The notes under the pieces were generated by a model. That model saw nothing but the letters and a program-made list of their open reading frames with translations. It searched no databases and was not told the DNA's origin. A program made the translations under genes and the position numbers. From Protoeuglena noctilucae (taxonomy: Eukaryota), in contig OY253677.1 in NCBI GenBank assembly GCA_958009085.1, positions 310,001-374,000 on the forward strand: a stretch of 64,000 nucleotides of DNA, written 5' to 3'. Below, piece by piece: positions 11,960 to 48,500 of this stretch; within the stretch, counting starts at the first letter, position 1; the number at the start of each line of letters is the position of its first letter.

Positions 11960-14900
11960 TCACGCCTCCCACGCCGTCACCGCCCGCGACGCCACCCGCG
12001 AGGCCCCCGCGTCCTTCCCCGCCTCTGTGTCGGCGCTGTCGGCGTCGTGCCCCCGCGCGCGCTTGGCACCGGCTTTCCTCTTGCCCTTCCTGCGGCGGCA
12101 GATCAGGGCCACGACGACGACGGCGACGATGCTGGCGAGCGCGATGAAGCCGACGATGCACCACACGGCGATGGCGGGGCCACGGCTGAGGGGCAGGCCG
12201 AGGTTGGACGGGCTGCCCGACGACGCACTGCCGCCGCTGGGCGACGCGGTGTTAAGGGAAATGATGGGCGTGTCCGTCATCTGCAGCGACCCGCTGCGGA
12301 AGTACACGCCATGAGAGGACAGCTCCGACTCGACTGCGGGCGAGGAAAGGGGCTGGATGTTGGCTGTGGGGTTAGACAGAGTGCGCGTGCGCCTGCTAAT
12401 GCTGCGTGGATGGTTTGCAAATAAGTGCATGGGGACCGCTGCAGCACGAGGCATGCGTGCGCCTCCATCGACTCACCGGTAGAGAGGGACAGCCCCTGGA
12501 TGTCGGCGCTGAGCGTGCCCGCCTGGCCCTGGCTCGTGGCCCCAACGTTAAGGAGGATGAGGACGGCGAGGGAGGAGGATGTGAGGGAGCGGCCCGCAGA
12601 CGGGCGGTCCTCCCTTGACAAAAGCTTCCGTCGGCCGCTGGCAGGGGTGGCGGTGACCGTGTAATAAGGCGCGAGCTTGGTCGTAACTTGGCTGGACGCG
12701 GTGGGCTGGGTGGGACTGGGCCCGGGGCTGGGCGTCGCGCTGCTCCCCTGGCTGGCGCCCACCTGGCACTGCACCATGCTGGGGCTGACCTGCGAGGTGC
12801 GTGCAGGCTTGGCGCACATCGCGACACGGCTGCGGGGCGGTGGCAGGCCACGTGCGAAGCCTTCTACGCATGCGATTGCATTGCAGGGGCGGTGGCGCGG
12901 CCGGCCCACCTGGAGCGCCGCAGCAAAGGCAGCCTGGGCGTCCTGGGCGACGGCGGCCAGGTCGGTGAAGTTGGAGGTAAGGGTGATGGAGAACTCGGCG
13001 GTGACGAGGTAAGGGGCGTTGACGGCGGACACGGGCGGGGAGGTGCCCAGGGGAGCGTCGCGGGCAGGGGGCGTGGCTGCCGTCGCGGTCGGGACGGGCG
13101 CGAAGGCGGGGGTCGGGGACGGGGCGGGGCTCTGCGGCACGGCGACGCCCGTGCCGACCGCAAGGGGCATGGCCACGTCAACGCCGACGGTGCTGGCATA
13201 GGGCGACAGTGTGGAGGTGCCGTCCGTGTTGTGGATCTGCACCGTGAAGAGCTCGATGGACATGCCCAGGATCTGGGGATAGGACCACCCGTTCTGGTCC
13301 CACCCGCCCGCGTAGATCTCCGTCCATGCGCCCTCCTGCAAGCGGATCGCAGAAAAGCCTCGATATGAAGATGTCGAGCATCCAACCTGCACCTATGGCT
13401 GGCTTCGTGTTAACAGCGGCCCTCGCCTGGATCTCCACGTACGCCTCGGACGCGAAAGGGTTGCCGGGGCATATGCTGGAGGTGTCGTTGCTCCTGTTGA
13501 TGTCCGGCATGTCGTCGTAGCACGAAGTAGTCTGCAGCACGTCGCCGTGCACGGGGTCGTAGGTAAAGACGCTCATCACCGTGTCGTAGGTGCTGTTGCA
13601 GAGCGTGATTCGAGCCACGCACTGCTGGCCACCGCAGTTGCCGGTGGTTCTGCGGAGTGGAACGGGGGGTGACCAGTTGGAAGTGGCGATGGCTGGGGTG
13701 GGCAGAACAGAGGCTGGCTTGCATGGACGGCTCCCAGGCCTCGGTGCAACCATACACAGTCTCTCAGATACAGGATCGTCGGCGCTTCCGTCATCGCAAG
13801 CGCAGCGCCCGCCCCGTGCGACCCCCTGCTGCTCACCGGAAGGCGTAGAAGGCCGACGCGCCGGGGCTGTTGAAGGAGGAGGATTGGCACGCCACCGAGA
13901 CGTTGTTGGTGTAGGGCCACATCTCGATGCGGAGCGTGGTGGCGAAGGGGAGCTGGTCCACCATGATGGGGTTGTCCATTGTGTCCCCCAGCGGCGCCCG
14001 GGTGTCGTTTAGCGTCACGGCATACACGCCCCCGTCTGCAGGGTGCGGGGTGCAGGGTAAATGGCATGCTGACACACGCTGGGCCCATGAGCACTCGACA
14101 GCAGAGTGTCTCACAGAGTATGAGCAGGACCCACGCTGCTCACCAAAGTTTTCATCTAACGAGGACGCCACCGCGTCAATGAAGACGCTGGGGGGTCCCA
14201 GGTAGGCGGCCCGCTTGGCATCCACCACCCCGGTCTGCCCCGTGGCGTTCCCTGAGGCATCGTACATGGGCCGAGGGATGGCGCCACCATCCATGCTGAC
14301 GTCGACGTTGACAGTCTGCGGCTGGTTCCAGTTGCCTGAGGAGGAAGACTGGGGTTAGGGGTGTTGGAGGGCAACAACCAGGGAGCGGTTTGGAAGCATG
14401 TCATGCACGCGGGCGCTCACCGGGCGTGAAGGTGAGGGTCGCGGGGGACACGGAGACATCCGGCCAGGAGGTGGACACGCTGACGGTGACCGTGTCCGAG
14501 GGGGGGGCGGCCAGGGCCAGGCCGACCGACTGCTGGTCGTTGCGGGTGGTGATGCCCAGCGCCTGGACGGTGCTCCTGAGCGCAGCCTTGGTCAGCGCCC
14601 GGGAGTACACGAGGGTGGACGTGCCCATGCTGGCGTCCTGGGTGACAGCGTCGGGCGTGGCCTCGGACCCTGCAGGCGGCGGACGGGGACAGCGGTGAGG
14701 AGGGCACCGTTACAACGAGACACAGAGGTGCGGGCGGTGATGCGAGAGCCCCTCACTGGCGACGAGGTGCTTGAGGGCCATCAGGTCGATCTCAGGCGAG
14801 TGGCCCAGGAAGGTCGAGGCGGCCCCGGCGGCAATGGGCGTGGCCATGCTGGTGCCGCTCAACACCTGCCAGGTGCCGGTGCAGCCCCCGCTGTTGCCGT

Positions 14901-16619
14901 CATTGCATGCTCCCAGGATGCTCATGCCGGGCGCGAACACGTCCACGCAGGGCCCGAGGTCGCTGAAGGGCGCCACGTCATCCATGTACTGGGGGCTGTC
15001 GGACCGAGAGGCGCCCACCGTGACGGCGAAGGCGGACGAGGCGGGCCACTGGTCGCAAGCGTTGGCGGCGTCGTTGCCGGCCGCCACGAAGGGCAGCACC
15101 CCCGCCTGCAGCAGCGCCCGCATGTGCCGGCTGCTGTCCGAGTTGTGCCCGGACGAGCCCAGCGAGAAGGTGGCCACGCCCGGCACCCTGCCCGGGTTGG
15201 CGCTGGTGAAGTTGACCATGGCCCCGATGCCGGACACGAACGTGGCGTAGCTCCCGCTGCCGGCGTCGGCGATGATCTTGAAGGAGAAGATGCTCGACTC
15301 CTTGCTGGCGCCCGCCTGCTGCCCCGCCGCGAGACTGGCCACGTGCGTGCCGTGGCCGATCGGCCCTGCATGGGGCGGGGGGCGAGCACAGGCAGATGCA
15401 ACGCGGGATGGGACAACAGCTCAGGTAATTTCCTTTCGACTTCCCCGCACCTGTGTCGTTGGGCGACTCCCCCGCCGACGCGTACGCGTTGTACTCGAAG
15501 CTGACTCGGCTGAGGCTGGCGTCCGCCTCACACTGCTGCGTGGTGGCATTGCCCTTAAGAAACTCAGGGTGGCACTGCAAAGAGCGAAATGGGATAATCA
15601 GCGCTTGCAGCACGCGACTGTCTGGCCAAGGCATGATACTCTTGCCACCGCACGTGTCGCAGCGCCCCATCGGCAGACAGTCAGGTTACCTGAAACACCC
15701 CCGTGTCTGCCACATACACGTTGGCCCCCTGCCCATCCGAGTAGTAAATGTACTCGCCGTCCAGGGGGGCGCTGCGCTGGTCGATGCGGTCCAGATGGGT
15801 AAACTGCGGGGGGGGGTGCAGCACAGACTGGTCTTACCATCCCAAGCAACGGGCGTCATGCAGCACCCCTTCCATTCAAAGTATGAAGCCCACCTTCCCA
15901 GGCCCCATGTTGGTGATGGGCTCGACCGAGGCATCCGACCCCAGCATGAGCATGCGCCCAAAGGCTTGCATGGGCGCGTCCTCGTACACGCCCTCCACAT
16001 CAGGGCCCACGTCCGCCAAAGCACCCGGCAGCTCCTCCAGCGACGCTTCCACGACCATGCTCGTCCCCGCGTGGGTCACCAGAGCGTGACAGGATGGCCC
16101 GGGGCGGTCGGGACCGGGGGGCCCAAGGGCAGCGCACTTGCGCGACGCTGACTCCGCGTCACCCATCACCACCAGCCACCGTGGTGTCGCAGTACCTGCG
16201 GTGGTGCCCTGGCCGCGCCTGTATATGGGGAATCCAGCGCCACTGCGGGCGAGCGAGGAGCGAGATAGGATCGCGCGCGCCGAGGGGCCTGAACATGGGG
16301 ACGCGGGGCACCCGGGCAAGAGCTTGCATGAAACATGATGGCAATTGCTGGACCCGAGGGCCAGATGCGCAGCAGGGAACGCGCACGGCCAACCGCTCGA
16401 CTCGCATGTTTGCCATCGCCCTCGACGCACCATTAGCGACAGATACAGGAGCTGTGACTGCACAGATCTAGATAGCGATGCTCGGTGCAGCGTACGAGGC
16501 CATCCGGCGCACCTGTCGATGGATGTCATCGCCGCAGCGACGGCCTGCATGCCAGCCAGGAGCAGCGCGGCAACCAGCGTGCAACCGCAGCATCGGCTGG
16601 CGAGTATGGAGGTCATCAT
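11960..16619 (-). CDS. Subtilisin-like serine protease (S8A, proteinase K type) with long extracellular extension and C-terminal TM helix, copy 1
   Basis: Motifs are LDRIDQR..VYVADTG (Asp), GHGTHVAS (His), VAAGND (oxyanion Asn) and LSGTSMATP (Ser). The N-terminus is hydrophobic. The TM segment IAVWCIVGFIALASIVAVVVVALI is followed by RRRKGKRK. Confidence 0.88.
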
Positions 16620-17263: not shown

Positions 17264-20200
17264 CTAGACGACGACCACGGTGTTGCGGGGCTCGTTGCGG
17301 GCCCCCACATCGACGGAGGAGGACGTGGGCGTCGGCTCCGACGATCCCCAGGCGGCCCCGCCGCGGCGCTTGCTGCTGAAGAGGCGGCGGTGGACCCGAC
17401 GCTCCTCCTCCTCATCCGTGTACGCAGCCCGCGACCTGCGGCGAGTCACCAAGCCATACATCACCCGCCGTCACATGCCGAGCGCCCCAGGCCCCACGCG
17501 GGGCCACTTGCGGCAGGTCTCACCTCCGGCGCACCGCGACGACGGCCCCCGCGACGATCCCCGCTACCGCCACCCCCGCCACGGCCACGCCGCACCAGGC
17601 GAGGATGGCGGGGACGCGCGGGACGTGGAAGCCAAAGTACGTGGCGGGGCTGCTCTTGGGGGAGCTGGGGGTCGCGGGGTGGTAGGCGGCGTTCTTGGCC
17701 ACCACGGGCGGCTGCTGGAGCTGCAGCGAGTTGGACTGGACGGGCAGGCCCGCGTCCGACAGCTTGGCCTCGACCGTGGCCGCGTCGGCGCCCTGGATCA
17801 TGGAGCTGAGGGAGTCGGCGGCCGCCGTGCTGGGTGCCCCCACCTGCACCTGCATGCTCACAGTGGTGCTGGCACGGGCCAGGGGGCGCCGCGCGGGGCG
17901 ACGGGCCGCGGACTCTGCCGCCGCATCGCCGAGGCCGCGGGGCAGGGCGACCCGCGCGCTCCCGAGGGGCGGCAGCGGGCCGCGCCCCTCGCCCAGGGGC
18001 CGGCGGGGGGGCGCCACGTCGCGGAGCGGGGCGATGTGCACTCCGGTCACGGCCGCGCTCGCGGGCCCGAACGTGGAAGCCGGGGCCGACAGCGCCGCCG
18101 TCACGGCCACCTCGCTCACGTCGACCCCCAGGAGAACCGCGAAGGCCTGGCGGACGTTGAGCTCGACGATGGCGGTGTCCACCGAGCCGTCGGCCAGGGT
18201 GACCACGTACACGGCCGTGACGTCGAAGGGGCTGGGGACGACGGGGGGGGCGGTGGCCGCCGGAGTGGGCGTCAGGGTCGAGGGGGATGGCGCCGGGGTG
18301 CTGGCCGGGGCGGGCGTGACAGGCGCTTGCGTGGTGATCGGGGCGATGCTCTGGGGAGGGCTAGTGGGGGCGGGGGCCTGCGGAGGTGAAGGTGGGCGAG
18401 GTTCGACCAGTTGCTGGAGGGTGGGGCATGGCAGGGCAGCGAGCTCCAGCAATGCAAAGCACTTCAGAGCAATTGACCCTTCCCGCGCGCGCCCCTCGCC
18501 TTGGTGGGTGCTGGCGTGGCGGGAGCGGACGTGGTGGGAGAGGGGGTGGCGGGTGTGGCCTGGCCCGGTGAAGACGGGGTGGATGAGCTCGGCGAGGAGG
18601 GAGTGGCAGCGGGGGTCGAGGAGGGCGGCGGGGTCGGGGCCGCGGTGGGCGCGGGGGTGGGCACAGGCGGGGGTGGCGTGGCAGGTGCGGCAGGTCCAGT
18701 CGGCATGGCGACGCCGGTGCCCTTCTTGAGCGGGAAGGCCGAGTCGACAGTCAGGGACCCCGAGTGCGCGTTGAGCTGGCTGCCAGAGGAGGAGGAGGAC
18801 GTGCTGGCGACGGTGTAGAGGGAGATGTCGACTCCGAGGATCTGGGGGAACGACCAGCCCTGTTGGTCCCACCCGCCCGCGTAGACCAGCATCCACGTGT
18901 TGGTCTGCGGGGAGGGGTCGGGAGGTTGTCGCGTCGGCGACTGAGAAGTGGGGGCGTGGAGTTGAACGAGGTGCTGGGAGGCTAAACGGTGCTTGCCTGG
19001 ACGTAAACGTAGACCTGGGAGGCGTAGGGGTTGTTCGGGCATATGCTCGAGGTGTCGTTGCTCCTGTTGATGTCCGGCATGTCGTCGTAGCAGGTGGTGG
19101 ACTTGAGGACCGCGTCGTTAACGGGGTCGTACGTGGCGACGCTCATCACCGTGTCGTAGGTGCTGTTGCAGAGTGTGATGCGAGCCACGCACTGCTGGCC
19201 GCCGCAGTCGGAGGTGGCTCTGGGGGACGGCGTTGAGACAGCAGTCAGACAGAGCGGCGCGCTCGCATACACCTAGGCTGGATGGGTGCCACGGTGGCCC
19301 TCCACCTCACTCACTTGAAGGCGAAGTAGGCGTCCGCACCGCCCTTGAAGGAGCTCGACTGGCACGCCGACGACACGTCCACGTTGTAAGGCCACTCCTC
19401 GATGCGGAAGGCCGCCGAGTAGGGCAGCTGCGTGACCACGATGGGATTCTGCATGGTGTCACCCAAAGGGGCCCGGGTGTCCGCCAGTCGCACCGAATAG
19501 ACACCCGCATCTGCGGGTGAGAGGGGCGGCGGCATGGTCGTGCAAGGGAGCACATGAGAGCTTGGCGATCGCGGCGTGGCATCGCGCCCCGGGGCCCCCC
19601 ACCAAAGTCGCCGTCGGATGAGGACGCCACCGCGTCGATAAAGACGCTCGCGGGGCCCAGGTAGGCCGCGGAGGTGGGCTCCACCACCCCGGTCTGCCCC
19701 GTGGCGTTCCCGGAGGCATCGTACATGGGCCGGGCCAGGGCGCCGCCGTCCATGCTGACGTTGACATTGACCGTCTGGGCCTGGTTCCAGTTGCCTGCGA
19801 GTAAGCGAGCGAAGGAGAGGCGTGGCATGCAGAGGGGCAGGCAGGCAGCGAGGTCGTCCCCACACCCATCTGACTGTTGCACTGCGATCGGCGAGGCAAG
19901 GATGGCGCAACTCACTTGAGGTGAAGGTGAGCGAGGCCGGGGACACGGTGACGCCGGACCAGGTGCTCGAGACGGCCACCGTCACGTCCGCGGCTGGCTG
20001 GGCCGCCAGCTGCAGGCCCACGCTGGTGCTGCCCACGCGGGTGGTGATGTCCCACAGCTGGACCGTCGCGGTGAGGGCCTTCTTGGTCAGCGCCCGGGAG
20101 TACACGAGGTTGGTCGTACCCTTGGACGCGTGCTGCGTGATGGCGCCGGACGTGGCCGTCAGGCCTGCGGGGAGCGGGGTGGGCGCAGGTGTTCGCCAAC

Positions 20201-22606
20201 GAGCGAGGCGGTGGATGGATGCGGGGTCGTGGTCTGTCTGCGGGCGAAGCACCAAGGCATCTCTGCTGCCGCCGCTCACTCTCGACGATATGCTTTAAGG
20301 CAAGGATGTCGATCTCCGTGTGCAGGGCCAGGTAAGACGCAGCGGACCCTGCCACGATGGGCGTGGCCATGCTGGTGCCGCTGAGGACGTGCCAGGGGCC
20401 ACTGCCGCACTCGGCTGACGAACTCTGGGGCGGGGGTAGGAAGGGCACAGCTAATGAGACGAGCAGGTGGCACGACGAGCAGTCGGCAGGCACCATCCAT
20501 GGAGCAGTGCGGCTGTCGTCAGGGCGAGGCCCCACCGCGATCCCCCACCTCGTTGCATGCCCCGACGTCGTTGACACCCGGGGCGAAGATGTCCACGCAC
20601 TTGCCCACGTTGCTGAAGCTGGCGAGAGCGTCCATGTAGGCCGCCGAGTCGGCACGGGAGGCGCCGACCGTGATGCCCCTGAAGCGACGGGCGGGCGAGG
20701 GTGCGGGGGTTCGGGCACACGCCACGGGGCGCGGCTGGGCACCGTGGGCTCAGACGGGCACGCCGCAGCTCGCCGGCGCTCACCAGGCGGAGGCCGAGGG
20801 CCACGAGGTGCATGCGTCCACGCCGTCGTTGCCGGCCGCGACGACGGGGAGGATGCGCGCCTGCACCAGGTTCTTTAAGAGGCGGCTGCTGTCCGAGTTG
20901 TTGCCAGCAGAGCCCTGAGAGGGAGCAGGAGCAGCCAGGTGGGATTGGGGGGTGCCCGCGTGTCAGAGTCCCAGGCAGTGACCCCGAGAGCTGTGCAGCA
21001 GGTCACCAGGGACATGTGACTGACCGCACATCATATCATGGACACGTAGCATACAGCGGCGACCCTGGGTCCATGCCTCGCCAACTCTCACCAGGGACAT
21101 GTTGACGACCGCGGGCGTCAGGGGTGGCGTCTGGGCACCCATGGTGAGCATGGAGTCTGCGGGGGCGGGTGCATGGGGTGCCACGTGACCGCCTCGAGCA
21201 CCTGCCGTCAACGTGGCATGCATGCTTGGTGCGGCCCGCCCTGCGCCCTCACCCACGCCCTGCGTCAGGGCCGTGTAGCTCCCCGAGCCGCTGTCCTGGA
21301 CCACCTTGAACGAGTAGATGTTTGCGCTCTTGGCCACGCCGGCCTGGTTGCCCGCCGCGAGGCTTGCCACGTGTGTGCCGTGGCCAATGGTGCCTGGGGA
21401 CGTGAAACGGGAAGCGGGAGGGGTCAAGGAGTGATAGTGCAGAAAATATGAGGAGACACATCACTACCTCTCACCTGTGTCGTTGGGGCTCTCGGAGGAG
21501 AAGGCGTTGAATTTGAAGTTGACGCGGCTGACGCTGGCGTTGCTCTGGCAGTCCGTCTGCGTCGACCCCGATTTGAGGAACTCGGGGTGGCACTGCACGG
21601 GAGGGCGAAGAGGAACGGGGAAGCGTCGCCGGTCACGACACCCGCAGCTTGCTAGCGTGAATGGCATCCGCCAAGCGCGAGTGTACATGCCCGGCCATCA
21701 GGAGATGCCATCTGATGATGCCCACCTGGAACACGCCAGTGTCGGCAATGAAGACGTTTGCTCCAGTGCCCTGGGAGTAGTAGATGTACTTGGAATCCAG
21801 GGGAGGGTTTCGCTGATCGATGCGGTCCAAGTGAGTGAACTGCGGGGCACGGGGCAATGGCGGCACCATGGCGATCACCCGGCCTCCACAGTATGCATGG
21901 CACAGCTTGCTGGGCCGACCGCTGCCCGACCAGCGCCTCACCTGCCCGATGTTGCTCCCAAGGCTGACGATGGCTTCCGTCTGCGCGTTGGAGCCCGTTT
22001 GCTGCAAAAGGCGGCCAGTGATGTACAGCTCTTGGTCCTCATACACCCCGACAACAGCGTCGGAGAGGTCGGCCAGTCCCTCATGCAGGTCACCCTCGGC
22101 GCCCTGTACCACCATGCCCAGCCCCACGCGCGTCAGCACGCCGTGGCAACCCAGGCCGCCCTGCCCCGCTGCGCTCCCCGACCCGAGCCGCTGGCACAGC
22201 GCCTGCGCCCGCCCCTCGGACCCGGGCTCCAGCGTGACCAGCCACCGGGCAGAGGACGCCTCCGAGAGGTCCCTGGGCCGCGCAGGCTGCAAGTGCCGCT
22301 TGTAAACGGTGAACCCCGACGGACTGCGCGACCAAGGGGGCGCAGGCACGTCCGCGGGGGCGCCCTCGACTTGCACGACATGAGGCCGCGCCTCCGCGGG
22401 CCCGGCGCTCCGCTGGCGACACGGCTGGCAGGATGCGGCTGCATGTGTCCCAGTACGTCGCGCGAGACAGGCCTCGCACGGACTTCCCCGCTGCGCGGGA
22501 CGCACCTGGCCACGGAAGACATAGCGGCACGGACGGCCGCTGCGAGGGAGAGAGCGGCCAGGATCCCGAGCCCGCATCCGCGGGCGGCACGAGCGAGCGT
22601 CCTCAT
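17264..22606 (-). CDS. Subtilisin-like serine protease (S8A) with extracellular extension and C-terminal TM helix, copy 2 (tandem paralog)
   Basis: Signal peptide MRTLARAARGCGLGILAALSLAAAVRA; motifs LDRIDQR..VFIADTG, GHGTHVAS, VAAGND and LSGTSMATP; TM AILAWCGVAVAGVAVAGIVAGAVVAV. Exon layout parallels copy 1. Confidence 0.88.
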
Positions 22607-36620: not shown

Positions 36621-37705
36621 TCACCGCGCTCCTCCTCCTCCCGCTGGCCTGCGAGCCCAGGTGGTGGCGGTGAGCCACCGCGCATCGCCCATCACAATCG
36701 CCCACCGCAATCGCCCACGGCGATCGCCAGACCCCAGCACGCAATCAGCACGGGACTCACGCACGGCCGTCTCGTGGCGCTGGAGGCCGGCGAGGAAACG
36801 CTCGTATGAGATGGGCCTACAGCACGACGCGTACTGGGTGCAGAGGGGCAGGACGACAAACACCCCACCAGCCAGACCAAAAGCGCCATAGACGGCCCCA
36901 CGCGTGGCGCCGGCCTCCGAGGAGGAGGGAGGGAAGAGGCCAAAGTACATGAGCAGCGCTAGGACGAGTATAATCGCGCCGGCAATGAAGAAGCCCACGA
37001 TGGCACCCTTGCGCTGGCGCTCCCTGCAGATGCCGCGGGGGCCCAGGTATGGGCAGAGGCTGCGAGGGCGCAGGCGGCTGCCACGAGCCACGCTGCACCA
37101 AGCAATGTCAGACAGCGGCGCAGTCAACCTCACCGGATGGCTGAGACGATGAGGTACTTGTGGTAGTCTGGCGACTGCCTCGCGCGTTGTGCCTGGTCGC
37201 CGTCGTATTGGAATCTCAGAGTACCTCCTCTAACATCCCGAAGGTGGACGACCTCATGCTGCAGGGGAGACATCACTGAGCGTGGGCGAACTCCCACGCG
37301 CCAGGCAAAGTCGGCCCAGTACAGAGCCAAAAAACGCTTCCCGTTCCTCAAAGTTGGCGCGCGCCTCACCACTGCGAGCTGGACCGGCGGAGGCCGTGAG
37401 GGCGCCGACCACCCGTCCGCACCGGGGCGGTGCTCCCTCCACGAAGGCTTTGTTTGGCTCTGGCCTTGCACGATCTCCGTCGAGATTGATGGCAATCCAT
37501 ACCCCGCGCCGCTGGCCCGGTCGGTCAGTCGGTCGGTCGAGGGGGGTCCCGCACTCTCTGCACTTCCCTTCCAGCCCCCCAGCACCCGCCACAGCCACGG
37601 GGACGCCCCCGCTTCGCTGCCTGCGGGCGCATGGCCTCGGTCTGCGCCGGGGCCGACCGTGCTCATCGACGGCGACGCAACCCCCGATACGCGAAGTCCC
37701 TCCAT
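36621..37705 (-). CDS. Hypothetical two-TM membrane protein; ends uncertain
   Basis: Two hydrophobic segments: GAIVGFFIAGAIILVLALLMYFGLF and AVYGAFGLAGGVFVVLPLC. Confidence 0.45.
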
Positions 37706-37943
37706 GTAGACGCTTGGTTTGCACCCTGCGAGCCCTCCGATGTGAGCGTCTCAGCAGCACCTGCGGCGTCAGGCATGTGAGAGTGTATTGCGATGAGCCC
37801 CGCGTGGCTTTTCTCGCGATTCCCCTGCGAATTGGGGAGAAAACCTGCCAGTCATCGGTGCCGTCGTCCCCCGCCCCCTTGGACCTCTCCTGGCGCCCGC
37901 GTCCGCCCTTTCCTTGCCAGGAACTCCATCATCAAACGTCATC

Positions 37944-39647
37944 ATGGCCGAAGGTCTCGTGGAGCGCGGAACCCTCAGGTCAGCCGCCCGAGGCCTGCCG
38001 GGCGCAGGCGTTGCGCCGCGTGCCATCAGCATTCCTGCGCCGATGCAATAGCATTTCAGCGGGGCGGTCGGCCCCGGGGGACCTGCACGGCCCTCGGAGC
38101 AAGCGGCTTTCCTCTCGCCGCGCTCCCCAACGACGTTCCAGCGGCTCTCCAAGTGCCTCCCGCACGCTTTGGCAAGCTTCGTTCCCGCTCCGCCCTGGGA
38201 TGTCCGGGGGAGGGTCGCCAGAGCCCGCCTCGCCCTCGCCGCCGTCTGCCGCCGATGGATCGCTGCCCGCTCGCATGTGACGATGCGTTCCGCCACGCGG
38301 TTCGCAGGGGGCACAAGGGGTGGGTGACGGCCATCGCCACGCCGCTGGACCCGTCCTCGGACACGATCCTCTCGGCCTCCCGCGACAAGACGGTCATCAT
38401 GTGGCACCTCACGCGCGAGGACACCGACTACGGCATCCCCAAGCGCGCTCTCCGCGGCCACTCTCACTTCGTGGAGGACGTGGTCATCTCTTCCGACGGC
38501 CAGTTCGCCCTCAGCGGCTCGTGGGACGGCACGCTGCGCCTCTGGGACCTCTCCACGGGCGCCACGGCCCGCCGCTTTGTCGACCACAAGAAGGCGAGTG
38601 CAAGAATCACGATGCCGAAGCGTGGCTGGTCGACGGAGGGCCGCGGCGGCCACGAAACCGCCGACCCATCCCGCAGGACGTCCTCTCGGTCGCCTTCTCG
38701 TTCGACAACCGCCAGATCGTGTCGGCGTCGCGCGACAAGACCATCAAGCTCTGGAACACCCTCGGCGAGTGCAAGTTCACCATCGGGACCGAGCAGGAGG
38801 GCCACACGGACTGGGTCTCGTGCGTCCGCTTCTCCCCCAGCACCGAGCTGCCCACCATCGGTGAGCCGCGCCGCCCCTCGCCCTTCTCCCTTGCTTATTC
38901 TCCGCGCTCGGCTCCATGTACGTGGCCCTGCCAGCTGGCTGACTCACGTGGCTCCCTTCCACCACCGGCACATTGCCATGAGCCCTGTCGATGCGCCTCC
39001 TTGCCCCCAGTCTCGTGCGGCTGGGACAAGCGCGTCAAGGTCTGGGACCTTAAGGAGTGCAAGCTCCGCTTCGACCTGGCAGGGCACACGCAGTACCTGA
39101 ACACGGGTGAGTGCGGGGGCAGCCCGGTGACGCGACCCGCCGCCCGCGCCTGCGCCGCGCTCATCCGCGCCCGCCGCCGGCGCAGTCACCGTCTCCCCCG
39201 ACGGGTCCCTGTGCGCCTCGGGCGGCAAGGACGGCGTGGCCATGCTCTGGGACCTGCACGAGGGCAAGCGCCTCTACTCGCTGGAGGCCAACGACATCAT
39301 CCACGCCCTCTGCTTCTCGCCCAACCGGTGCGCGTCGGACCTGCGCCGCTCGGGCCGCGCGCGCCGCCGTGCCCCGCCTCGCCCGGCCCCTCCACTGCAA
39401 TGGCGCTCTGTTCGTCGTCGTGCCGCGCAGGTACTGGCTGTGCGCGGCGACGTCTTCGTGCATCAAGATCTGGGACCTGGAGACCAAGTCGGTCGTGGAC
39501 GAGGTGCGGCCCGAGTCAGACCAGCCGCTGTCCAAGAAGGCCATCCCCCACCATTGCACGTGCCTCCAGTGGTCCGCGGACGGCTCGGTGCTCTACGCCG
39601 GCTACACGGACGGCCTCATCCGCGTCTGCACCGTCAACCGCATCTGA
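37944..39647 (+). CDS. RACK1: Receptor for activated C kinase 1 (G-beta-like WD40 ribosomal protein)
   Basis: [65 protein letters not shown] and [11 protein letters not shown]. Confidence 0.97.
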
Positions 39648-39939
39648 GGGTCCGACGCTCCGCGTGCGGGAGGCACCCCTGACGCCGTGGTGGGGCGCAC
39701 CTGGCGGGGTCGCTAGGGCAGCGCGCTGCCGAAACCTTGCTGCCCCTCGTGTATGGCAAGGGCACGAGCGCGGGACGGCCCTCACAGGAGGGAGGAAGAG
39801 CAGGGCTGGCGAGCGGGGGCTGCACCCGCGCATTTGAAGGCTGAGAAAATCAGCGAGACCAGCACTTGCTGACACTTGAACGTCCGTGCCAGAGTGCCGA
39901 AGCTGACGCGCGTCTCATCATCGGGAAAACCCGGCGATT

Positions 39940-40070
39940 TGACGTCACTCGGATCAGAAGGATCGCGGGAATCACTGGATTCATCCCAGTGATCCCCGGG
40001 AATCGCCGGGATCATCCCCGTGATCCCGGCGATCCCCGCCACTGCCGCAGTGATCCCAGCGATCCCGGGC
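39940..40070. repeat. Left subterminal GATC-rich repeat array of the transposon
   Basis: ATC recurs about every 9-10 bp (39953, 39962, 39971, 39983, 39992, 40002, 40011, 40023, 40032, 40053, 40062), forming a ~31-bp unit that contains GGGATCATCCC. Confidence 0.8.
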
Positions 40071-40610
40071 CGCGGCCCTGACGCGCGTGCGCGCCCCCGC
40101 GTTTGCTCAGGGGGCTCGAGAGGAGGCGGAGAGACCGCACATTTGCTAGTTGGTGCTAATGACTGCCTCGGAGGCCCCTCTCGCGTCCTAAAGCTTGCTC
40201 CAGCATGCAGACGGGGGCCGTCGACGCATCCGGGGTCCGCTTCCCCTGCGCCGCCGCTGTTCAACGTGAGATGTCCATATCTATGCGATGAGCGGGAGCT
40301 CGCGGGCTCGCCGGGCCCCCGGGGGCGCCGGGGAGGTCCCCGTGCTCGACCAGGCCTACCGCCGCCGCGGCCGCGATCGGGCACGCAGCGCTTGGTCTAT
40401 GGATTGAGGTGACCTAAATCTCGCTAGCTGCGGCGCCTTTGCCGGCTACGCCGCACGGAGGTGGCTGCTGCATGGGAGGTGAGCCGTCCCCGCCGTCATG
40501 GCGCTGCGGATGGGGGCGCGGGGCTGGCTTCGGAGAATTATCTCGATACAGATGACATCGCCGGCGTCGGGGACCTGGCACCGCGAGCATCGGGGAGCTC
40601 CTGGGGTCAC

Positions 40611-43600
40611 CTACTCCTCGCCGCCGCTGGCGTGGTGCTCCCAGACCTGCTGCACGTGGCCGCAGTGAAGAAGCTTCCCAGCAACTTTCACGGCGTGAAG
40701 CTGCCGCCGAAGGTTGCGGAGGGGCACGCACTTCAGAGCCTCGCCCTCCGCAGGCTCCAGGAGCGACAGCTGGGGAGGCTGCAGCGCTCCCAGGTTGGTG
40801 TAGAACGACAAGCACTGGTTGGACAGGTACCTCAGGTCGCATGGGGCCCTGTGCACCGGGGCCACCAGGGCGCAGAGGAAGGTCCCGGCACCGGAGCTGG
40901 TCTTCGCCTCAACCCCGCACACGACCCTGCCCGTCTGCAGCGTGCCCCTGTCCGGGAGGTACTCGACGAAGGACAGGGTCTCGTCGGTGGCGACGATCCT
41001 GGCCCGGTCCCCGCTGGCCGTCCCGATCTCGACCGTGGAGGTCAGCGCGACCTCGCCCAAGACGTGGCAGGGAAGCCCCGCGCCCTTGAGGGCGTTCAGG
41101 AGGTCCGCCTTAGAAACGAAGTCTTCCGCGCGTCCCTCGCTGCACAGGTCGTTCTTCTTCAGGACGGTCTTCACGCCCTTCACTTGGTCCTCGGGCTGGG
41201 ACGGGACCGGCTGCTCCGCCCTCGCCCGGCTCTTGATGACGGAGGCCGCCCTCTGAGAGATGACGCTGGTGCTCGCCTGCGACAGGGCTCGGGGGTCAGT
41301 CCAGCGCGGCTCAGCATGGCACGCGGGTCGAGCGCCGTGCGACCGCATCGAGACGTGTGAGTCGCAAGAAACGCGTCCTGCGTGGGCTTCCCCGCGTCGC
41401 CTACGCTGGGCGGCGCTTCTTGCCTGTACCTGCACGTCGCCCTTGCCGTTCGTGCGCGCGTTGGCAATGGGCTTGTGCATGCGCTCGGCGTCGTTCATGC
41501 TGCCCAACATGATGGAGCCGTTCCTCGCCACCACTGCAGGGAAATGCGAAAGCGCGTGGCACTTCTGGCTGTTCTCGATCTTGCTGAAGAGGGGCTTCTC
41601 CGTGCGGACGATTTCGTGGCCACGCAGCAGCGTCTTGAGCACGACCTGCGGCGACACGGCAGCGACAAGGCTTCCAGAGTGAGTAAGGGGCAGCGAACGA
41701 TGGGGCTGGTGTTGGAGAAGGCCTCACGTGGAGGACCTTATTCAGCTGCGCGTCCGCCGCCTGCGCCCCTGCGATGGTGGCGCTCTCCAGGGACCATTCG
41801 GCATAGAGCTGAAGGCATGCCAGGGCTACGGCCACGAGCCCAACCCTCTCGTCGTGCACGTCTTTGCTGCCCGTAGGCTCTGCAAGGGATGTGGTGGTGG
41901 GGAAACACTCCCGGGGTTCCCCGGCCCGCATCGCGATACCCGCAGCTCCTCCCGATGCCCTCGCAGCGCTGACTGTCGGCCTCGCCTCGAGAGAAGAGCT
42001 CGACGAGGGCGAAAGGCAGAGCTTGGATCAAGAACCTCGCCTCGTACGCCTTTATCTTCCCAAACGGGTCCACGAGGCTCAGCACGATCTGGAAGGTCTC
42101 GCCCCACGGACGGGCGTGGATCCATGCCGGGGCCTGCGCTCCACCCACACGACGATGGACATGCCAGGTGAATACCGAGCAGCTGCGGCGCCACTGCAGG
42201 CAACGCACGCCATTGCCTGACCTGCAGCTCACCTTGGCATCCGCAATGATCGATGCGAACGCAGCCAAGAGGGCGTTTGCCTTTGTCGCAGACTCTCCCG
42301 CTGCCGCGTTGTTGTAGAGGACGGTCAGTATGCAGAAGGGAACAGTCTTGCCCAACATTCCCAGTTCCACGGTGTGCATGGGGTCAGGTGCTTGGCCCTG
42401 ATACAAGTCCGACCCGAACTCGTCCCAGTACGACAGGGCAGGAACCACAGGATGAATTTTGCTCTCCCTGGCTTGTTCGTTGGCCCTGGCCGTCCCCACG
42501 TCCCTCCTCAAGCGCAGGATGTGCTGCACCTGGAGGCGATGCAGCGCGACGGTGCGAGGCGTGCGGCAGTCATCCTGGAGGCACAGCGGGCACGACCTGA
42601 CGGCCAGCGTGGACGAGTTGGCCATCATGTCGTTCAGCTGCGCCGCCAAGACGGGATCGACGATGACTCTCCCGACGTCGGGGAGGGTCATCCACACCCC
42701 ACCGGACCTCGCCACGCCAATCAGCTGCCGGTCCACGGCAGCCAGCCGCCGCTGGATGGCCTCTCTGTTGTTCAGGTCTGCCTGTGACCCCGGAGTGATC
42801 CCGGACACCTGCGGGGGCCTCGAGCGACAACTCATACACGCGGCGTGGTGGTGGACGTGTGGGCTGCAACGCCGGCAATCCTCCTCTCGCCTTCATGGAC
42901 TCGACGGTGGCCACGGATCGCGGCGTCCCTGTCCTCACGGCCTTGCAAGGCGACAGGAGGTGCATGTGGATGGGCGTCGTCGATGCGCCCTTGGTCATCT
43001 CCACCCCGTCGATGCTGTACGCGACGGGCACGAGGAGCAGCCGGGCGTGCAGCTCGGGGCGGACTTTGCCAGCGACAGCCTCGGCTATGTCGCTATACCC
43101 CTTCGCCCGGGAGAAGGTGAGCTTCTCGTGGATGCTGGGATGCGTCTCATGTGGTCTCGCCCGCGCCTGGCGTGACCGTTCCCGTGCCTCGCTGAAGTCT
43201 CGCATCAACTTAACGAGCGTCTTGGGCTTGATCTGCTCCGCGTGCACCAGCATGTCCCTCAGCACCGTTATCGTTTGGTAGATGATGGTTGTGCTGCCCT
43301 CCTCTTGCAAAACCTGCAGGCCGTGCGTGCACTGGTTGGCGTCAGCCCCCTCGGCCGCGTCCGAGGCCCTCGACACAAGCGGCACCGCGGCGTGACGCAC
43401 CTCGTACTGGCCATGGATGCTGTTGAGTGAGGTGTGGAACGTGCGGTGGGAGCGCCCGAGGTCGAGAAGGTCGTCGCGGATGTTGGGGCGCAGCTTCACG
43501 AAGCAATCGAAATGCGCTGCCGTCAGCGATGCCATGAACTGCGCCCCTGCTTCAAGTTGGCTCAGGTACTCATCGTCACTGTCCCTGCTCCTGGCCCGCC

Positions 43601-44114
43601 ATGCCTCCAGGTCCTCCGGCAGCTTCAGCGGTTCGTACTCCCCGGGCGCAGGAAGGTAGGAGACTCCAGGAGCGTCCTCTTGGGGCGCATCATGCGCTCC
43701 GGCGCTCTCGGGCGGTTCACCCCTCTCCGAGTCAATGTCCACGTCCATGTCCACGTCCGTGTCGGCGTAGTGGAGCCACGCGAGTCCTACATCTTCGCTC
43801 TCGCCATCACTGCCCGCAGCAACGTCCGCCGTCCCGTCTTCCTCCCGCAGTTCTTGGTCTGGTCCCGCGCTGGCGCTGTCGCGTGCCAGCCCGTCCGAGC
43901 CTCGCAGAGACGGAGAGACATAGTGTTCGTGTGGGGCGGCGGGGCGGGGTGCTTCCTGGCGGCTCTCCTCGCCATATCTCCAGCCCCACAGCGCAGGGCA
44001 TCTTTGCTGATGCCGGGCGAGCTTGGCCGGGGTATCGAATTGCGTTCCACACGCGTCGCATTCGAGCATGGTGAGCTGCAGCGCAGGTTGCGATGCAGGG
44101 TTCAAGGCGGGCAT
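40611..44114 (-). CDS. Plavaka-type DDE transposase with N-terminal C2H2-like zinc finger, spliced (~6 introns)
   Basis: Motifs: CDACGTQFDTPAKLARHQQRC; VPVAYSIDG (D) followed by PIHMHL; PVLAAQLND (D) and CPLC; DLYQGQAPDPMHTVELG; KCHALSHF...NG...AERMH (E)...RTN. Order and spacing fit the Plavaka family. Confidence 0.8.
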
Positions 44115-45379
44115 GGTGAGGGCGTGGAAGCGGAGGTGAGGAAAGTCCAGCGCGCGCTCTGTGGGTCAGGCAGGCTCAGGGGTCGTCAGTCCTCCAGGCA
44201 AGCGGGGGTGGATTGCAGGGCTGCAGCGACAGCACCGCGCACAGGCGAGGCTCGGCGCTGCTGGTGCGAACAGCGCTGGATCATCGTCCCTCTCTAGGGT
44301 GAGAGTGCAGCCTGCTGCTGAGCCATCTGCGAGGTGTGCTGACGTGGCTGGGGAGGGGAGGGGCCAGCTCCCGTGAGGTGAGATGCAGCATACGCATGAC
44401 TAGATCAGGTCGGACATTGTCGCTGTCCCCGAGGTGCGCGGTTGGTCTGCTGCGCTACCGGTGGGGTCTGCGACACGGTCAGGTGTGCAAGGGGGGGTTG
44501 GTTGGCTGGGAGGGACGAAGGGCTGGTCCGCCAGCGTGGTATCTCTGTACTTGCTAACTGTACCTGGCACCGTGCCTGCACTCTCTCACCCCGAGACTGA
44601 CTCTAACTTCGCCTAACAAGCACGCAGGCGCACGTGCCACCTCGTCCCAAGTTCCGGCGCTGGTCGGGTGCTGGCCGGGCCCGCCATGGCTCGTCCGCCG
44701 ACCCATGCCCCTTGTCTGTCGTCTGGCGTCCGCGGCGCCCCGCAGCGGTGGTCATCGACTCCTGGGGCGGCCGTCGGCACGGCGGAGTCGCGCACGCCAC
44801 CATCTCCCGAGTGCCTGGCCCGAGTGCCGGAGCGCCGCTCCCCGATGGAGCGGCAGCGTCCGGAACAAGCGGTCGGTGCCTCTGGCGGTGGTCGCTGCGC
44901 GCTCCCGTCGCGCCTGCGGCCGCCCGAGTCCGGCTGCATGTGCGTGCATGAGTGCGTTGCCTAGCGCGTCACGGATGGTCATGTAACCTCGGCGTAGGGA
45001 TTGAAATACCAATAGCTACGCTAGGGAGCGATTACGGGCCGAACGGAGCCCCCCGGGCCGCGCGGGCCCCGGAGCGCGCGTGCCCAAAAGATGCGTCCGA
45101 TCGCGATCAAGATAGGTCTGATCGCGGCCGAGAAGGAAGATAGGCGGCGGGATAGCCTCGGCTAACGCTTCCGGCGCCGCTGCGCTCCCGAGTGGGCCCC
45201 GCTCCCCGCGATCCCCGACCACGACGAAATGCCGCGAAACTGCTCCCAGCGGCCTCTCGCATCCCGGGTGCGCCGTGGCCGTAACCGCGCCGCGTAAAAC
45301 GGCCTCCCCAGGGAGATCGGGCGCGCGGCTGGAATCACTGGGCTCAATGAGGGTTTACATTACAGTCTGTGTCGTCAGT

Positions 45380-45478
45380 GGGATCACTGGGATGATCCCT
45401 CTGATACCCCGGGATCAGCGGGATGATCCCCACGATTCCTGGGTATCACGGGGATGATCCGACTGACGCCAGACTCGC
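45380..45478. repeat. Right subterminal repeat array of the transposon
   Basis: Three ~31-bp units containing GGGATGATCC (45389, 45420, 45451), which are the reverse complement of the left-end units. Confidence 0.8.
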
Positions 45479-45581
45479 GGTTTTCCCGATGATGATTCTC
45501 CGCATTCGCGCCAAATGCGGGCCACTGCAGGCGCCCGGGCCCCTGCGCGGCGCTGGAGCCTGCCCAGTGCGACATTGCACC

Positions 45582-48500
45582 ATGCTTAAGCGCTTGCTCT
45601 TCTGTTGGGGGGGATCGCCTGAGGGGGGCGGCGATGGCGGGAAGAGGGGCAGAGGGAAGTCGAAATCGAAGAATGACGCGCCGAAAGAGGATGCGCCGGA
45701 CCCCCACAAGGCTTACCGGTGAAACTGGACTCCCCTCCTTCTCTCCGTGCCGTCCATTCCTAGCGCGCCAGGCAGCCGAGAGACGTATACTCGTTTATGT
45801 TGCTCCTCGCGCTCCCGCAGGGCCCGGGACGACGGGGACGAGCGAACTCCCCCCGCGTCGGTCTCTCCGTCCCCGGGGGCACCCGCGCCAGCGGATCCGC
45901 TGGCCCGGGAGGTCTATGAGCAGTGCTCCGGGCCTGGATGCCGTGTTGTTTGCTGCTCGCGCGCCATCGACGACGTTGCAGCGCAGAGGTGAGAGCCTTG
46001 CGCTGGCAACAATGCAGCAACGCCACCTTTCGCGCGCGGCCGTGGCTTCCGCTCCCGGATCCGCTTCTCGAACACGCAGAGTGGCCGAGGGTCTTCTCGC
46101 GTCCTCTTGCCAGGACCTCGTCGCCCTGTCCCTCTCGGACAACTGCGTGGGCCCCGGGGGAGTCCAGGCGCTGCGGGAGGCCCTGCGCTCCTGCGCCGCG
46201 CTGCAGGAAGTGGACCTGGGCCGCAACCGTCTGGGCGTCGCGGTGAGGGGCATAAGGGGACTGTGGCGGCGTGTGGCACGGCATCCCAGGCGTGTGGGGT
46301 CTCCCTGGGCTGCGCTTGCCTGGCCCTATGCTGGGTACCACAGTCCTCTGAACAACCCCGTCGATAGCTGCACTGTTGCTCGGGGATGTAACGAGGCCTG
46401 TTATGCCTGTCATGCCACCACCGACCCTGCGCTCGTGCGAGGGATGGCTCTCGTCGCATGTCCCAGGGCGCCGAGCACCTGGCGCAGGCCCTCGAGGCGG
46501 CCATCTTCCTGGAGCGGCTGGACGTGTCGGCGAACGACATCGGGGACGCGGGGGTGCGGGCGCTGGCGGCATCCATGCGGACGGGGTGGTTCAAGCTCAG
46601 GTGCGGGTGGGGCAAGGGTGAAGGGCGGCTTGATGAGACCCGAGGGGTTTGAGTATGTTGGCCAACCCTACCGTCGCTGCGGACTCCGCCGTCGCTGCCA
46701 CCCACCCCCAGGCGGCTGTGCCTGGACGGCAACGGCATCTCCAGCCTGGGCGCCGAGACTCTGGCGGACGGCCTGATGGCGGCCACGTCATCGCTGGAGG
46801 AGGTGCGCCTGAGGGACAACCAGATCGAGGACGCGGGGGCGGCCGCCCTTGCGCAGACGCTGCGGTTCTGCTCAAACCTCAGGCGAGGGCGGGGTGCTTG
46901 CCAGATTGGGTGCGAGGGATGCGTGCGTGAGACGACCATGGCGCATATGGCGGGTGTCAGCGCGGCACTCAGCGTGGCAGGATGCTCGCTTGGCATGCAC
47001 CGAATGCTTCGATGAAGTCGGTGTTGTGGATTCGTCTGCCCTCGCAGGGTCTTGGACCTCGATGGCAACCGCATCGGCGACCACGGAGTGCGGATGGTGG
47101 CGTCGAGCCTCCACAACAGCCGCGGGCTCGCGTCCTTCCACGTGCGGGGCGTCAAGCTGGGGTGGCCGGGGAGGGAGGCCATCGCCCAGCTGGTGGCGCT
47201 GGTGCCGGCCGTGCAGGTGCACTACAACACGGGTGAGGGCAGGCGGTTGATGACATGGGCTGCGTGGGGCGAGAGGGTTACATGGGATGTGTGGGGTGAG
47301 GGGCAGGCGCTGGGCGACCCCGGTGGGTGGCAGCACTGCTCATCCCTCCTGCCCTGCCCGCCCCCTCAGACCGCGGTCAGCCCGCGGAGTTCTCCTCGCC
47401 GCGCCACAGCATCGACGGCCTCCCGACGCGCGCACCCAGCATGGCTCGCTCCTCCCCGCCCCTTGCCACGGCCACAAGCGGCGCGGGGGCCGGGGCCGGG
47501 GTGGGGGCGTCCCCAGCCCCCGACGCCGGTGCCCTGGGCCGCCGCCGCAAGTCCCTGGGGTCCGGCAGGGACATGTTTCTCTCCAAGATGCCCGGGTCCC
47601 GCGCGCCCCCCGAGCTGGTGCTGGCCCCGCACCTCCGCAACCTGGGAGCCCGCGAGTCCTCTGCGGCCACCTCCGCTGCGGCATCGCCCGACGTCTCCAA
47701 CACCGAGGGCGGGGTTGCTGAGGTCGCGGGGGTGAGGGAGCGCGCGCTGGCGGCCGTGTCGGCTGCGGTGGGGCATGCGGGCGGGGACGGCGGCGTGGAT
47801 GCAAGCGAGGGGCCACCCAAGGGCAGCGCGGAGATGGAGGTCCAGGTAGCGAGCGAGTCGGTCGTTTCCAGGTCCCGGTCGGCGTCCCTGCAGCGCCTGG
47901 TGGACGCGCCCAGCCCCAGGTAACACCTGGCCATGGCACGCGGCACATGCGGCTCTGCCCTTACACCCGCCCCTGGCAGCATGAGAACACCGCACATCAG
48001 CCCAGGTGCCTGTGACCCGTTCTCTTTCAATTCCTCCACCGCAGCCCCACGCCCCTGACGGACTTCGCCCCAGCCTCGTCCTCCCCCGTTCCCGATTCGC
48101 CCCTCCGCACCGTCCCAGAAGCAGCCGCACCGGCAGCAGCAGCAGAGGCCAAGGCAGACCCGACCCCGCCGTCGCCGCGCTCCCGCCGCGCGTCGGGGGA
48201 GCTGCGGCCGGACGGGGTGGTACCCTTCATCGACTACCACAGCCCGGTCTCACGCGCGCCTCTGGCCGTGGAGACGCGCCCAGACATCGACGCGGCCGCG
48301 TGGTCCAGCGCGGGGGCCGGGCTCGGGTCGCCCCGGGGCGGGGAGGAGGTCGACGAGGAGGCCACCCTGCTGGCCGCGCTGGGGCTGGCGCCAGCACCGC
48401 CACCGCCGGCACTGCCACCGTCGCCAGCGGCACCGGCGCTGGCGGGGCGGGGCGTGGGCGTGCCTGGGCTGGCGGGAGAGGACAGCCCGGGGCGGCACCT

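Follow-up and report, generated by a model that had tools for sequence, protein, structure and literature searches.

A probable Plavaka-type DNA transposon with PlavakaB-like ends in the marine green alga Protoeuglena noctilucae

The CMCT group of DNA transposons (EnSpm-Mirage-Chapaev-Transib-Plavaka) includes the Plavaka elements, whose name goes back to Iyer et al. 2014 as cited in PMC12730594. According to the latter source, CMCT transposases are characterized by a C(2)C and an H(3-4)H motif between the second catalytic D and the catalytic E, and PlavakaB is defined by 5'-CATCA..TGATG-3' ends and duplications of 2-3 bp (Kojima 2025, PMC12730594), whereas PlavakaA has TGT..ACA ends and EnSpm CAC..GTG ends. 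Two further papers describe potentially active EnSpm-Plavaka families with polymorphic insertions in the green alga Auxenochlorella (PMC12633428) and Plavaka elements in red algae, chlorophytes and streptophytes, with putative ones in Spirogyra and other Archaeplastida (PMC13519894). The present analysis concerns a stretch of 64,000 nucleotides of Protoeuglena noctilucae (contig OY253677.1, positions 310,001 to 374,000), referred to as the window, in which positions 39919-45491 represent a transposon of 5,573 bp. An initial interpretation based on the letters of the window, here called the sequence-only reading, had proposed an apparently intact Plavaka-type element at this place and had referred to Plavaka as best described in basidiomycete fungi. 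The fungal relatives do fit the element, but the chlorophyte reports cited above show that Plavaka is not restricted to fungi.

This segment is likely to represent a single copy of a cut-and-paste transposon that is young and multicopy, that falls into the CMCT group with PlavakaB as its closest branch, and that moves in the following way. A gene on the minus strand would be spliced from six exons and specify a DDE transposase of 981 amino acids, which would bind the element at its 13-nt terminal repeats and at the 31-nt motifs of the mirrored subterminal arrays. The element would be excised and reinserted at an AT dinucleotide, where a staggered cut of 2 bp would duplicate the AT, and interrupted gap repair would yield internally deleted, non-autonomous derivatives.

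The termini of the element are part of a perfect inverted repeat of 17 nt (39915-39931 versus 45479-45495), which is composed of the 13-nt repeat proper (39919-39931/45479-45491), the AT flank of 2 nt and a further 2 nt from a palindromic target. When the element is taken out together with one AT, the sequence ..GTCTC-AT-GATTC.. is left, and it is due to the TCATGA palindrome at this target that the perfect inverted repeat extends 4 nt past the element. When the termini were aligned end to end, the first 13 bases (CATCGGGAAAACC) agreed perfectly, and the repeat continued with mismatches to approximately 40 nt. Allowing for at most one mismatch, the 12-mer ATCGGGAAAACC was detected at two sites in the 64 kb, both of them element termini, with 0.09 sites expected by chance. 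Inside both termini lie arrays with a period of 31 nt (39966-40027 and 45379-45460) in mirror-image arrangement; their arms measure 58-60 nt and show 78-81% complementarity. The motif TGATCC occurs at eight sites in the window, which has a GC content of 0.61-0.75 per kb, and six of these eight sites are located within the two element ends. The GGAATC/TGATCCC motifs of the subterminal arrays are probably transposase-binding sites. The terminal repeats and mirrored arrays named in the sequence-only reading were accordingly recovered, and its coordinates coincide with the exact CATCG..CGATG boundaries.

The ends were compared with those of fungal PlavakaB elements by using the supplement of PMC12730594, with counts taken by eye from the printed text. 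All 28 listed fungal PlavakaB consensus sequences start with CATC, as does the element, and 20 of them contain AAA at positions 8-10. The best agreement of the 13-nt repeat was obtained with PlavakaB-1_RuGr (12 of 13 positions), while PaIn agrees at 11 positions. The element differs from the fungal pattern by a G instead of an A at end position 5, although PlavakaB-1_AuCo, as the one fungal family of this kind, has a G there as well.

The multicopy state of the element became apparent from four sequencing runs, two of RNA and two of DNA type, whose word depth and contig ends were read against window positions 37500-47500. The runs containing the element are marine. In run X8, in which flanks and introns were covered evenly, word depth amounted to about 2350-2800 over most of the element versus 138-165 in the flanks (a ratio of about 15-18), and in run X4 to 36.7 versus about 3. 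Contigs with other flanking sequence start at 39914, 39917 and 39918 on the left side and at 45493 (three contigs) and 45494 on the right side. Since all four runs carry the same seven differences from the window copy over 5.5 kb, the copies are more than 99.8% alike. Run X8 also contains a joint 41038->44298 from which 3259 nt are missing; its AG..AG ends do not have the form of a splice junction, its depth is below that of the full copies, and it is an internally deleted derivative. In a protein collection consisting of unspliced open reading frame (ORF) calls, 28 exon 1 ORFs from other copies cluster together, their contigs being as long as 1.2 Mb, and the exon 2-3 ORF is present on 55 contigs. 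A scan of metagenome contigs with both element ends gave 0 matches, and a second copy, fragment or short derivative that might link the element to miniature transposons (MITEs) or introners was not detected elsewhere in the 64-kb window.

These data clearly indicate that the element is real, recently multiplied, multicopy mobile DNA, and it is well preserved and probably active as a family, in line with the earlier suggestion that it might still be mobile and that further copies should be looked for. The alternative that a transposase was domesticated as a single-copy host gene could draw on the open reading frame, but it is already refuted by the roughly 15-fold depth, the several different flanks, the intact terminal repeats, the deletion derivative and the 28 ORF variants on many contigs, so that it retains practically no probability.

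The minus-strand gene is predicted to comprise six exons that are joined in phase by five GT-AG introns (130, 99, 94, 82 and 153 nt) to a reading frame of 981 amino acids without a stop, as had been suggested for a single gene of this orientation. In the predicted frame, the GC contents at the three codon positions are approximately 0.66, 0.46 and 0.82 in each of the six exons, and no such periodicity is seen in the five introns or in either non-coding arm. An optional in-frame intron of 87 nt (43400-43314) was dropped and the stretch kept in the exon because its codon periodicity looks coding. In the deduced protein, a finger of the form C19-x2-C22-x12-H35-x4-C40 is followed by an acidic linker, D369 (SIDG), D452 (LND), C465-x2-C468, PDPMH at 533, KIKAYEARF at 610, H718-x3-H722 (KCHALSH) and E742 (AERMH). 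This is the predicted succession of SIDG, LND, PDxMH, KxHxxxH and ERMH, and at motif level the candidate residues C465xxC468 and H718xxxH722 between D452 and E742 correspond to the PlavakaB/CMCT pattern given in PMC12730594. The finger expected by the sequence-only reading is present, but it is of the C2HC instead of the C2H2 type, with an E value of only 0.06 for Pfam zf-C2H2. The proposed beta-rich C-terminal domain was not confirmed, as the fold model of the C-terminal exon reached a mean pLDDT of 48. A second gene or cargo was not found in the element, which agrees with the earlier statement that a TET/JBP or other cargo gene is lacking.

The assignment of this protein to Plavaka was examined with a protein atlas and with Pfam. 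In the atlas, exon 2 fell on Plavaka (PF18759) clusters with a score of 0.96 (185 of 256 features in common, 24 of 30 matches being Plavaka), and residues 185-392 of exon 1 fell on Plavaka clusters with a score of 0.91 (161 features in common, 19 of 30 matches). With single exons scanned, the Pfam profile PF18759 aligned to exon 2 of sister copies (P0001, P0003) over profile positions 198-317 of 325 with 15.8 bits and an E value of 0.0083. The PlavakaB-like ends, the 2-bp flank repeat, the C(2)C and H(3)H motifs, the two exons on atlas clusters and the sub-threshold PF18759 match together support the view that the element is of the Plavaka type within the CMCT group, and Plavaka, with PlavakaB as the closest branch, appears to be the best-supported family. 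The family name given in the sequence-only reading is upheld by the same features.

Several observations weigh against this interpretation, and they concern the family assignment, the target site, the state of the window copy and the RNA data. With respect to the family, the exons of the window copy matched none of the Pfam transposase families at E values up to 10, and the PF18759 score of the sister copies lies under the cut-off of 26.3 bits, so that the profile comparison suggested earlier gave a faint match in sister exon 2 and none in the window exons. A phmmer search of exons 2-3 against 1.84 billion representatives yielded a fragment of the element itself, a junk repeat protein and nothing else, word-based searches with exon 1 and exon 2 against longer proteins returned only the element's copies, and no relative came up when metagenome and viral contigs were scanned at the protein level. 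Since phmmer finds no relatives among 1.84 billion proteins, the lineage must be very divergent. The phmmer match P0002 was considered as a relative and rejected as a tandem-repeat artefact, and a phmmer search with P0006 against solved structures gave chance matches only (E above 0.5).

The sub-threshold Pfam score and the phmmer result are also what might be expected if the element belonged to a separate deep CMCT lineage, sister to or outside Plavaka, in which the CATC..AAAAC ends were an older trait of the whole group or the outcome of convergence; the atlas recognition value of exon 2 (2201), which is below the 2300 reached by 91 of 100 proteins of known families, points in the same direction. 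We regard this alternative as rather improbable, because the ends fit PlavakaB specifically and neither the CAC..GTG ends of EnSpm nor the TGT..ACA ends of PlavakaA, and because two separate exons point to Plavaka and not to Transposase_21.

With respect to the target site, the window copy has AT on both flanks, which makes the AT a candidate 2-bp target-site duplication. On the contigs of other copies, however, AT adjoins three of the four left ends and every right end seen, and the AT may therefore be part of the element; a fixed AT target would fit as well. A contig that skips the whole element and would represent an empty site was not found among the four runs.

The window copy itself has an open frame and may nevertheless be impaired. 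A comparison with 15 listed members of the 28-member cluster and three members of the P0001 cluster revealed two private missense changes: D443, which results from two adjacent base changes and is F in seven of seven ORFs covering the site, and N210, which is D in eight of eight. Residue 443 is located nine residues before the second candidate catalytic D within the hydrophobic run RVIV-F-PVLAAQLND, and the weak Pfam match to Plavaka appears when exon 2 carries F443 and disappears with D443. The description of the element as apparently intact consequently holds for the open frame, but it is qualified by these two changes and by its dependence on predicted introns. An active enzyme may thus not come from this copy, but sister copies could move it in trans.

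With respect to the RNA data, contigs from metatranscriptomes (X6 record 21; X13 records 3, 5 and 6) run through each of the five predicted introns without splicing, and no sense-strand splice joint was present in the contigs of the RNA runs. In the same RNA run, GT..AG joints are present in the RACK1-type gene next to the element. In X6, the element exceeds its flanks in depth by the same factor as in the DNA runs, which fits carry-over of DNA from about 15 copies, so that the unspliced contigs say nothing on sense expression. The splicing that the sequence-only reading had proposed to check in RNA was not found, and the five sense-strand introns stand as predictions.

A non-autonomous family would explain these RNA data if the introns were frame breaks of a decayed gene across which GT-AG pairs happen to be available, or if the gene were silent, with another transposase spreading the copies; the weak donor of intron 3 and the ease with which GT/AG pairs are found in such sequence are compatible with this view, as is the recording of splicing in antisense only. 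It is nonetheless unlikely, although it keeps some weight: the frame of the codon periodicity shifts precisely where junctions are predicted, with no periodicity left in the five introns, the motif order is restored across the junctions, and the sister ORF P0018 with a true frameshift looks different. Moreover, copies that are more than 99.8% alike leave little time for gene decay.

The only splicing seen is that of the opposite strand to the transposase gene. Three ORF variants or variant pairs (P0001/P0003, P0004, P0010), all from contigs of 3-4 kb, carry gaps that correspond to canonical introns on the plus strand, and the simplest reading, with an RNA origin of these contigs assumed, is spliced antisense RNA. 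This raises the question whether the functional product of the element is encoded on the plus strand, for which the three canonical GT-AG introns and a plus-strand frame of 372 amino acids that is open across two junctions can be adduced. Such a product is highly improbable, however, as the frames are rich in R, A, G and P as expected opposite a GC3-rich gene, resemble the reverse of such a gene and not a protein, and give no family signal, whereas it is the minus strand that carries the codon periodicity and every transposase motif. In addition, a highly expressed RACK1-type gene on the plus strand ends 270 nt upstream, so that read-through combined with cryptic splicing offers a simple source. 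With the transposase gene placed on the minus strand, the antisense RNA may originate by read-through from plus-strand neighbours, such as the RACK1-type gene, and may be spliced at cryptic sites.

The element is situated in a very short intergenic gap, about 270 nt past the stop codon of the RACK1-type gene and about 90 nt before the start of the next plus-strand ORF (approximately 45582). The left neighbour (37800-39647, plus strand) is a WD40 gene of the RACK1 type, and two of its introns (38859->39010 and 39105->39185) were confirmed by RNA contigs. The features of the element are compiled in Table 1.

Table 1. Features of the transposon at window positions 39919-45491; minus-strand introns, catalytic residues and target-site duplications are predictions.
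Feature	Position	Strand	Basis or remark
Left flanking AT, candidate 2-bp target-site duplication	39917..39918	.	AT at both ends; other-site contigs diverge at 39914, 39917, 39918
Left terminal inverted repeat CATCGGGAAAACC	39919..39931	+	Perfect over 13 nt, imperfect on to ~39957; matches fungal PlavakaB ends
Left subterminal array, GGAATC/TGATCCC motifs, 31-nt period	39959..40066	.	Probable transposase-binding sites
Exon 6 with stop codon TAG (40613-40611), C-terminal domain aa 761-981	40611..41276	-	GC3 0.90; fold model poor
Predicted intron 5, 153 nt, GTACAG..CAG	41277..41429	-	Splice signals, flat periodicity; RNA-unconfirmed
Exon 5, H718-x3-H722 (KCHALSH), candidate catalytic E742 (AERMH)	41430..41645	-	Gene model, periodicity, motifs
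Predicted intron 4, 82 nt, GTGAGG..CAG	41646..41727	-	Gene model, flat periodicity
Antisense canonical intron GTGAGT..CAG, 288 nt	41679..41966	+	Missing from contig behind P0004
Exon 4	41728..41879	-	Gene model, periodicity
Predicted intron 3, 94 nt, weak donor GTCAGC, least certain junction	41880..41973	-	Stronger nearby GTATCG donor is out of phase
Exon 3, KIKAYEARF motif	41974..42133	-	Gene model, periodicity, motif
Predicted intron 2, 99 nt, GTGAGC..CAG	42134..42232	-	Gene model, flat periodicity
Antisense canonical intron GTGAAT..CAG, 124 nt	42168..42291	+	Missing from contigs behind P0001, P0003
Exon 2, second candidate catalytic D452 (LND), C465-x2-C468, PDPMH	42233..42808	-	Private D443 at 42657-42658; sister copies F
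Predicted intron 1, 130 nt, GTGAGG..CAG	42809..42938	-	Gene model, flat periodicity
Exon 1, start ATG at 44114, C2HC finger aa 19-40, acidic linker, first candidate catalytic D369 (SIDG)	42939..44114	-	Private N210 at 43484; sister copies D
Antisense canonical intron GTGAGC..CAG, 203 nt	43117..43319	+	Fits P0010 junction; protein alone leaves exact base unfixed
Element 5' non-coding region, no codon periodicity	44115..45327	-	Codon-position GC
Right subterminal array, mirror of left	45328..45466	.	Repeat searches
Right terminal inverted repeat, GGTTTTCCCGATG on + strand	45479..45491	-	Repeat searches
Right flanking AT, candidate 2-bp target-site duplication	45492..45493	.	Loose ends start at 45493 (3 contigs), 45494

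A comparison with described systems places the element next to the PlavakaB transposons of Agaricomycotina fungi. Judged by PMC12730594, these share with it CATC(A/G)G.AAAAC.. ends, short subterminal repeats and a size in the kilobase range. Both have one large DDE transposase, predicted in the case of the element, in which the C(2)C and H(3-4)H motifs are placed between the second D and E. The 2-bp AT repeat at the flanks of the element is a candidate counterpart of the 2-3 bp duplication of PlavakaB. The element differs from them in its marine green algal host, in the absence of TET/JBP cargo, in five predicted introns and in a protein whose divergence puts it out of reach of phmmer and of the Pfam threshold. 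Plavaka-type cut-and-paste elements of the green lineage in Auxenochlorella (PMC12633428) and in Spirogyra and other Archaeplastida (PMC13519894) resemble it as far as the descriptions in the available parts of these papers go, and no marine prasinophyte is named as a Plavaka host in those parts. A literature search on Plavaka and Micromonas returned, in the text available, only the Auxenochlorella work, in which both words occur in unrelated contexts, and a search on introners and transposases in Micromonas returned nothing that matches the element. EnSpm/CACTA (Transposase_21) and Transib/RAG1 possess the same CMCT motif set of D, D, C(2)C, H(3-4)H and E together with CA..TG ends, whereas the element has no CACTA end, no duplication of 3 or 5 bp, no Transposase_21 match and no second (TnpA-like) gene.

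Three other family assignments were considered and rejected. EnSpm/CACTA does not apply with ends of CATCG instead of CAC(TA)..GTG, a flank repeat of 2 instead of 3 bp and no PF02992 match at E values up to 10, and the TGT..ACA ends of PlavakaA are unlike CATCG..CGATG. For the KDZ group (Kyakuja-Dileera-Zisupton), there was neither a Pfam match nor a flank repeat of 8 bp as in Zisupton, and the atlas matches were Plavaka.

Elsewhere in the window, the segments 13241-15820 and 18810-21856 are related in tandem about 5.5 kb apart, with 73-84% identity in several blocks, and probably represent a duplicated gene. A tandem repeat with a period of 90 nt and five copies (2003-2426; 73-100% identity) is possibly a repeat-containing coding region.

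The presence of Plavaka in chlorophytes has already been published, and what is new here is a very divergent element and no new mechanism; our knowledge of how such transposons work is unchanged by these findings. In its boldest form, the finding would mean that a deep Plavaka lineage is transposing now in the compact genome of a wild ocean picoalga, with its CATC.G.AAAAC ends kept and its transposase diverged beyond ordinary searches, and that it is perhaps held in check or self-regulated by an antisense RNA from which at least three canonical introns are spliced; we put this forward only tentatively and consider it doubtful as a whole. The window provides a near-consensus, complete reference copy of a marine green algal Plavaka-type element for which the exact ends, the candidate binding repeats and the whole gene model are available. 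The comparison of the ends suggests that the PlavakaB end signature is common to fungi and the green lineage, and this signature would then be of diagnostic use in cases that escape protein searches. The antisense spliced RNA represents a small lead on how a compact genome handles an active element. As a young family that occurs in several ocean metagenome and metatranscriptome runs, the element might offer a natural marker by which ongoing transposition can be followed, or a starting point for a transposon tool in such algae.

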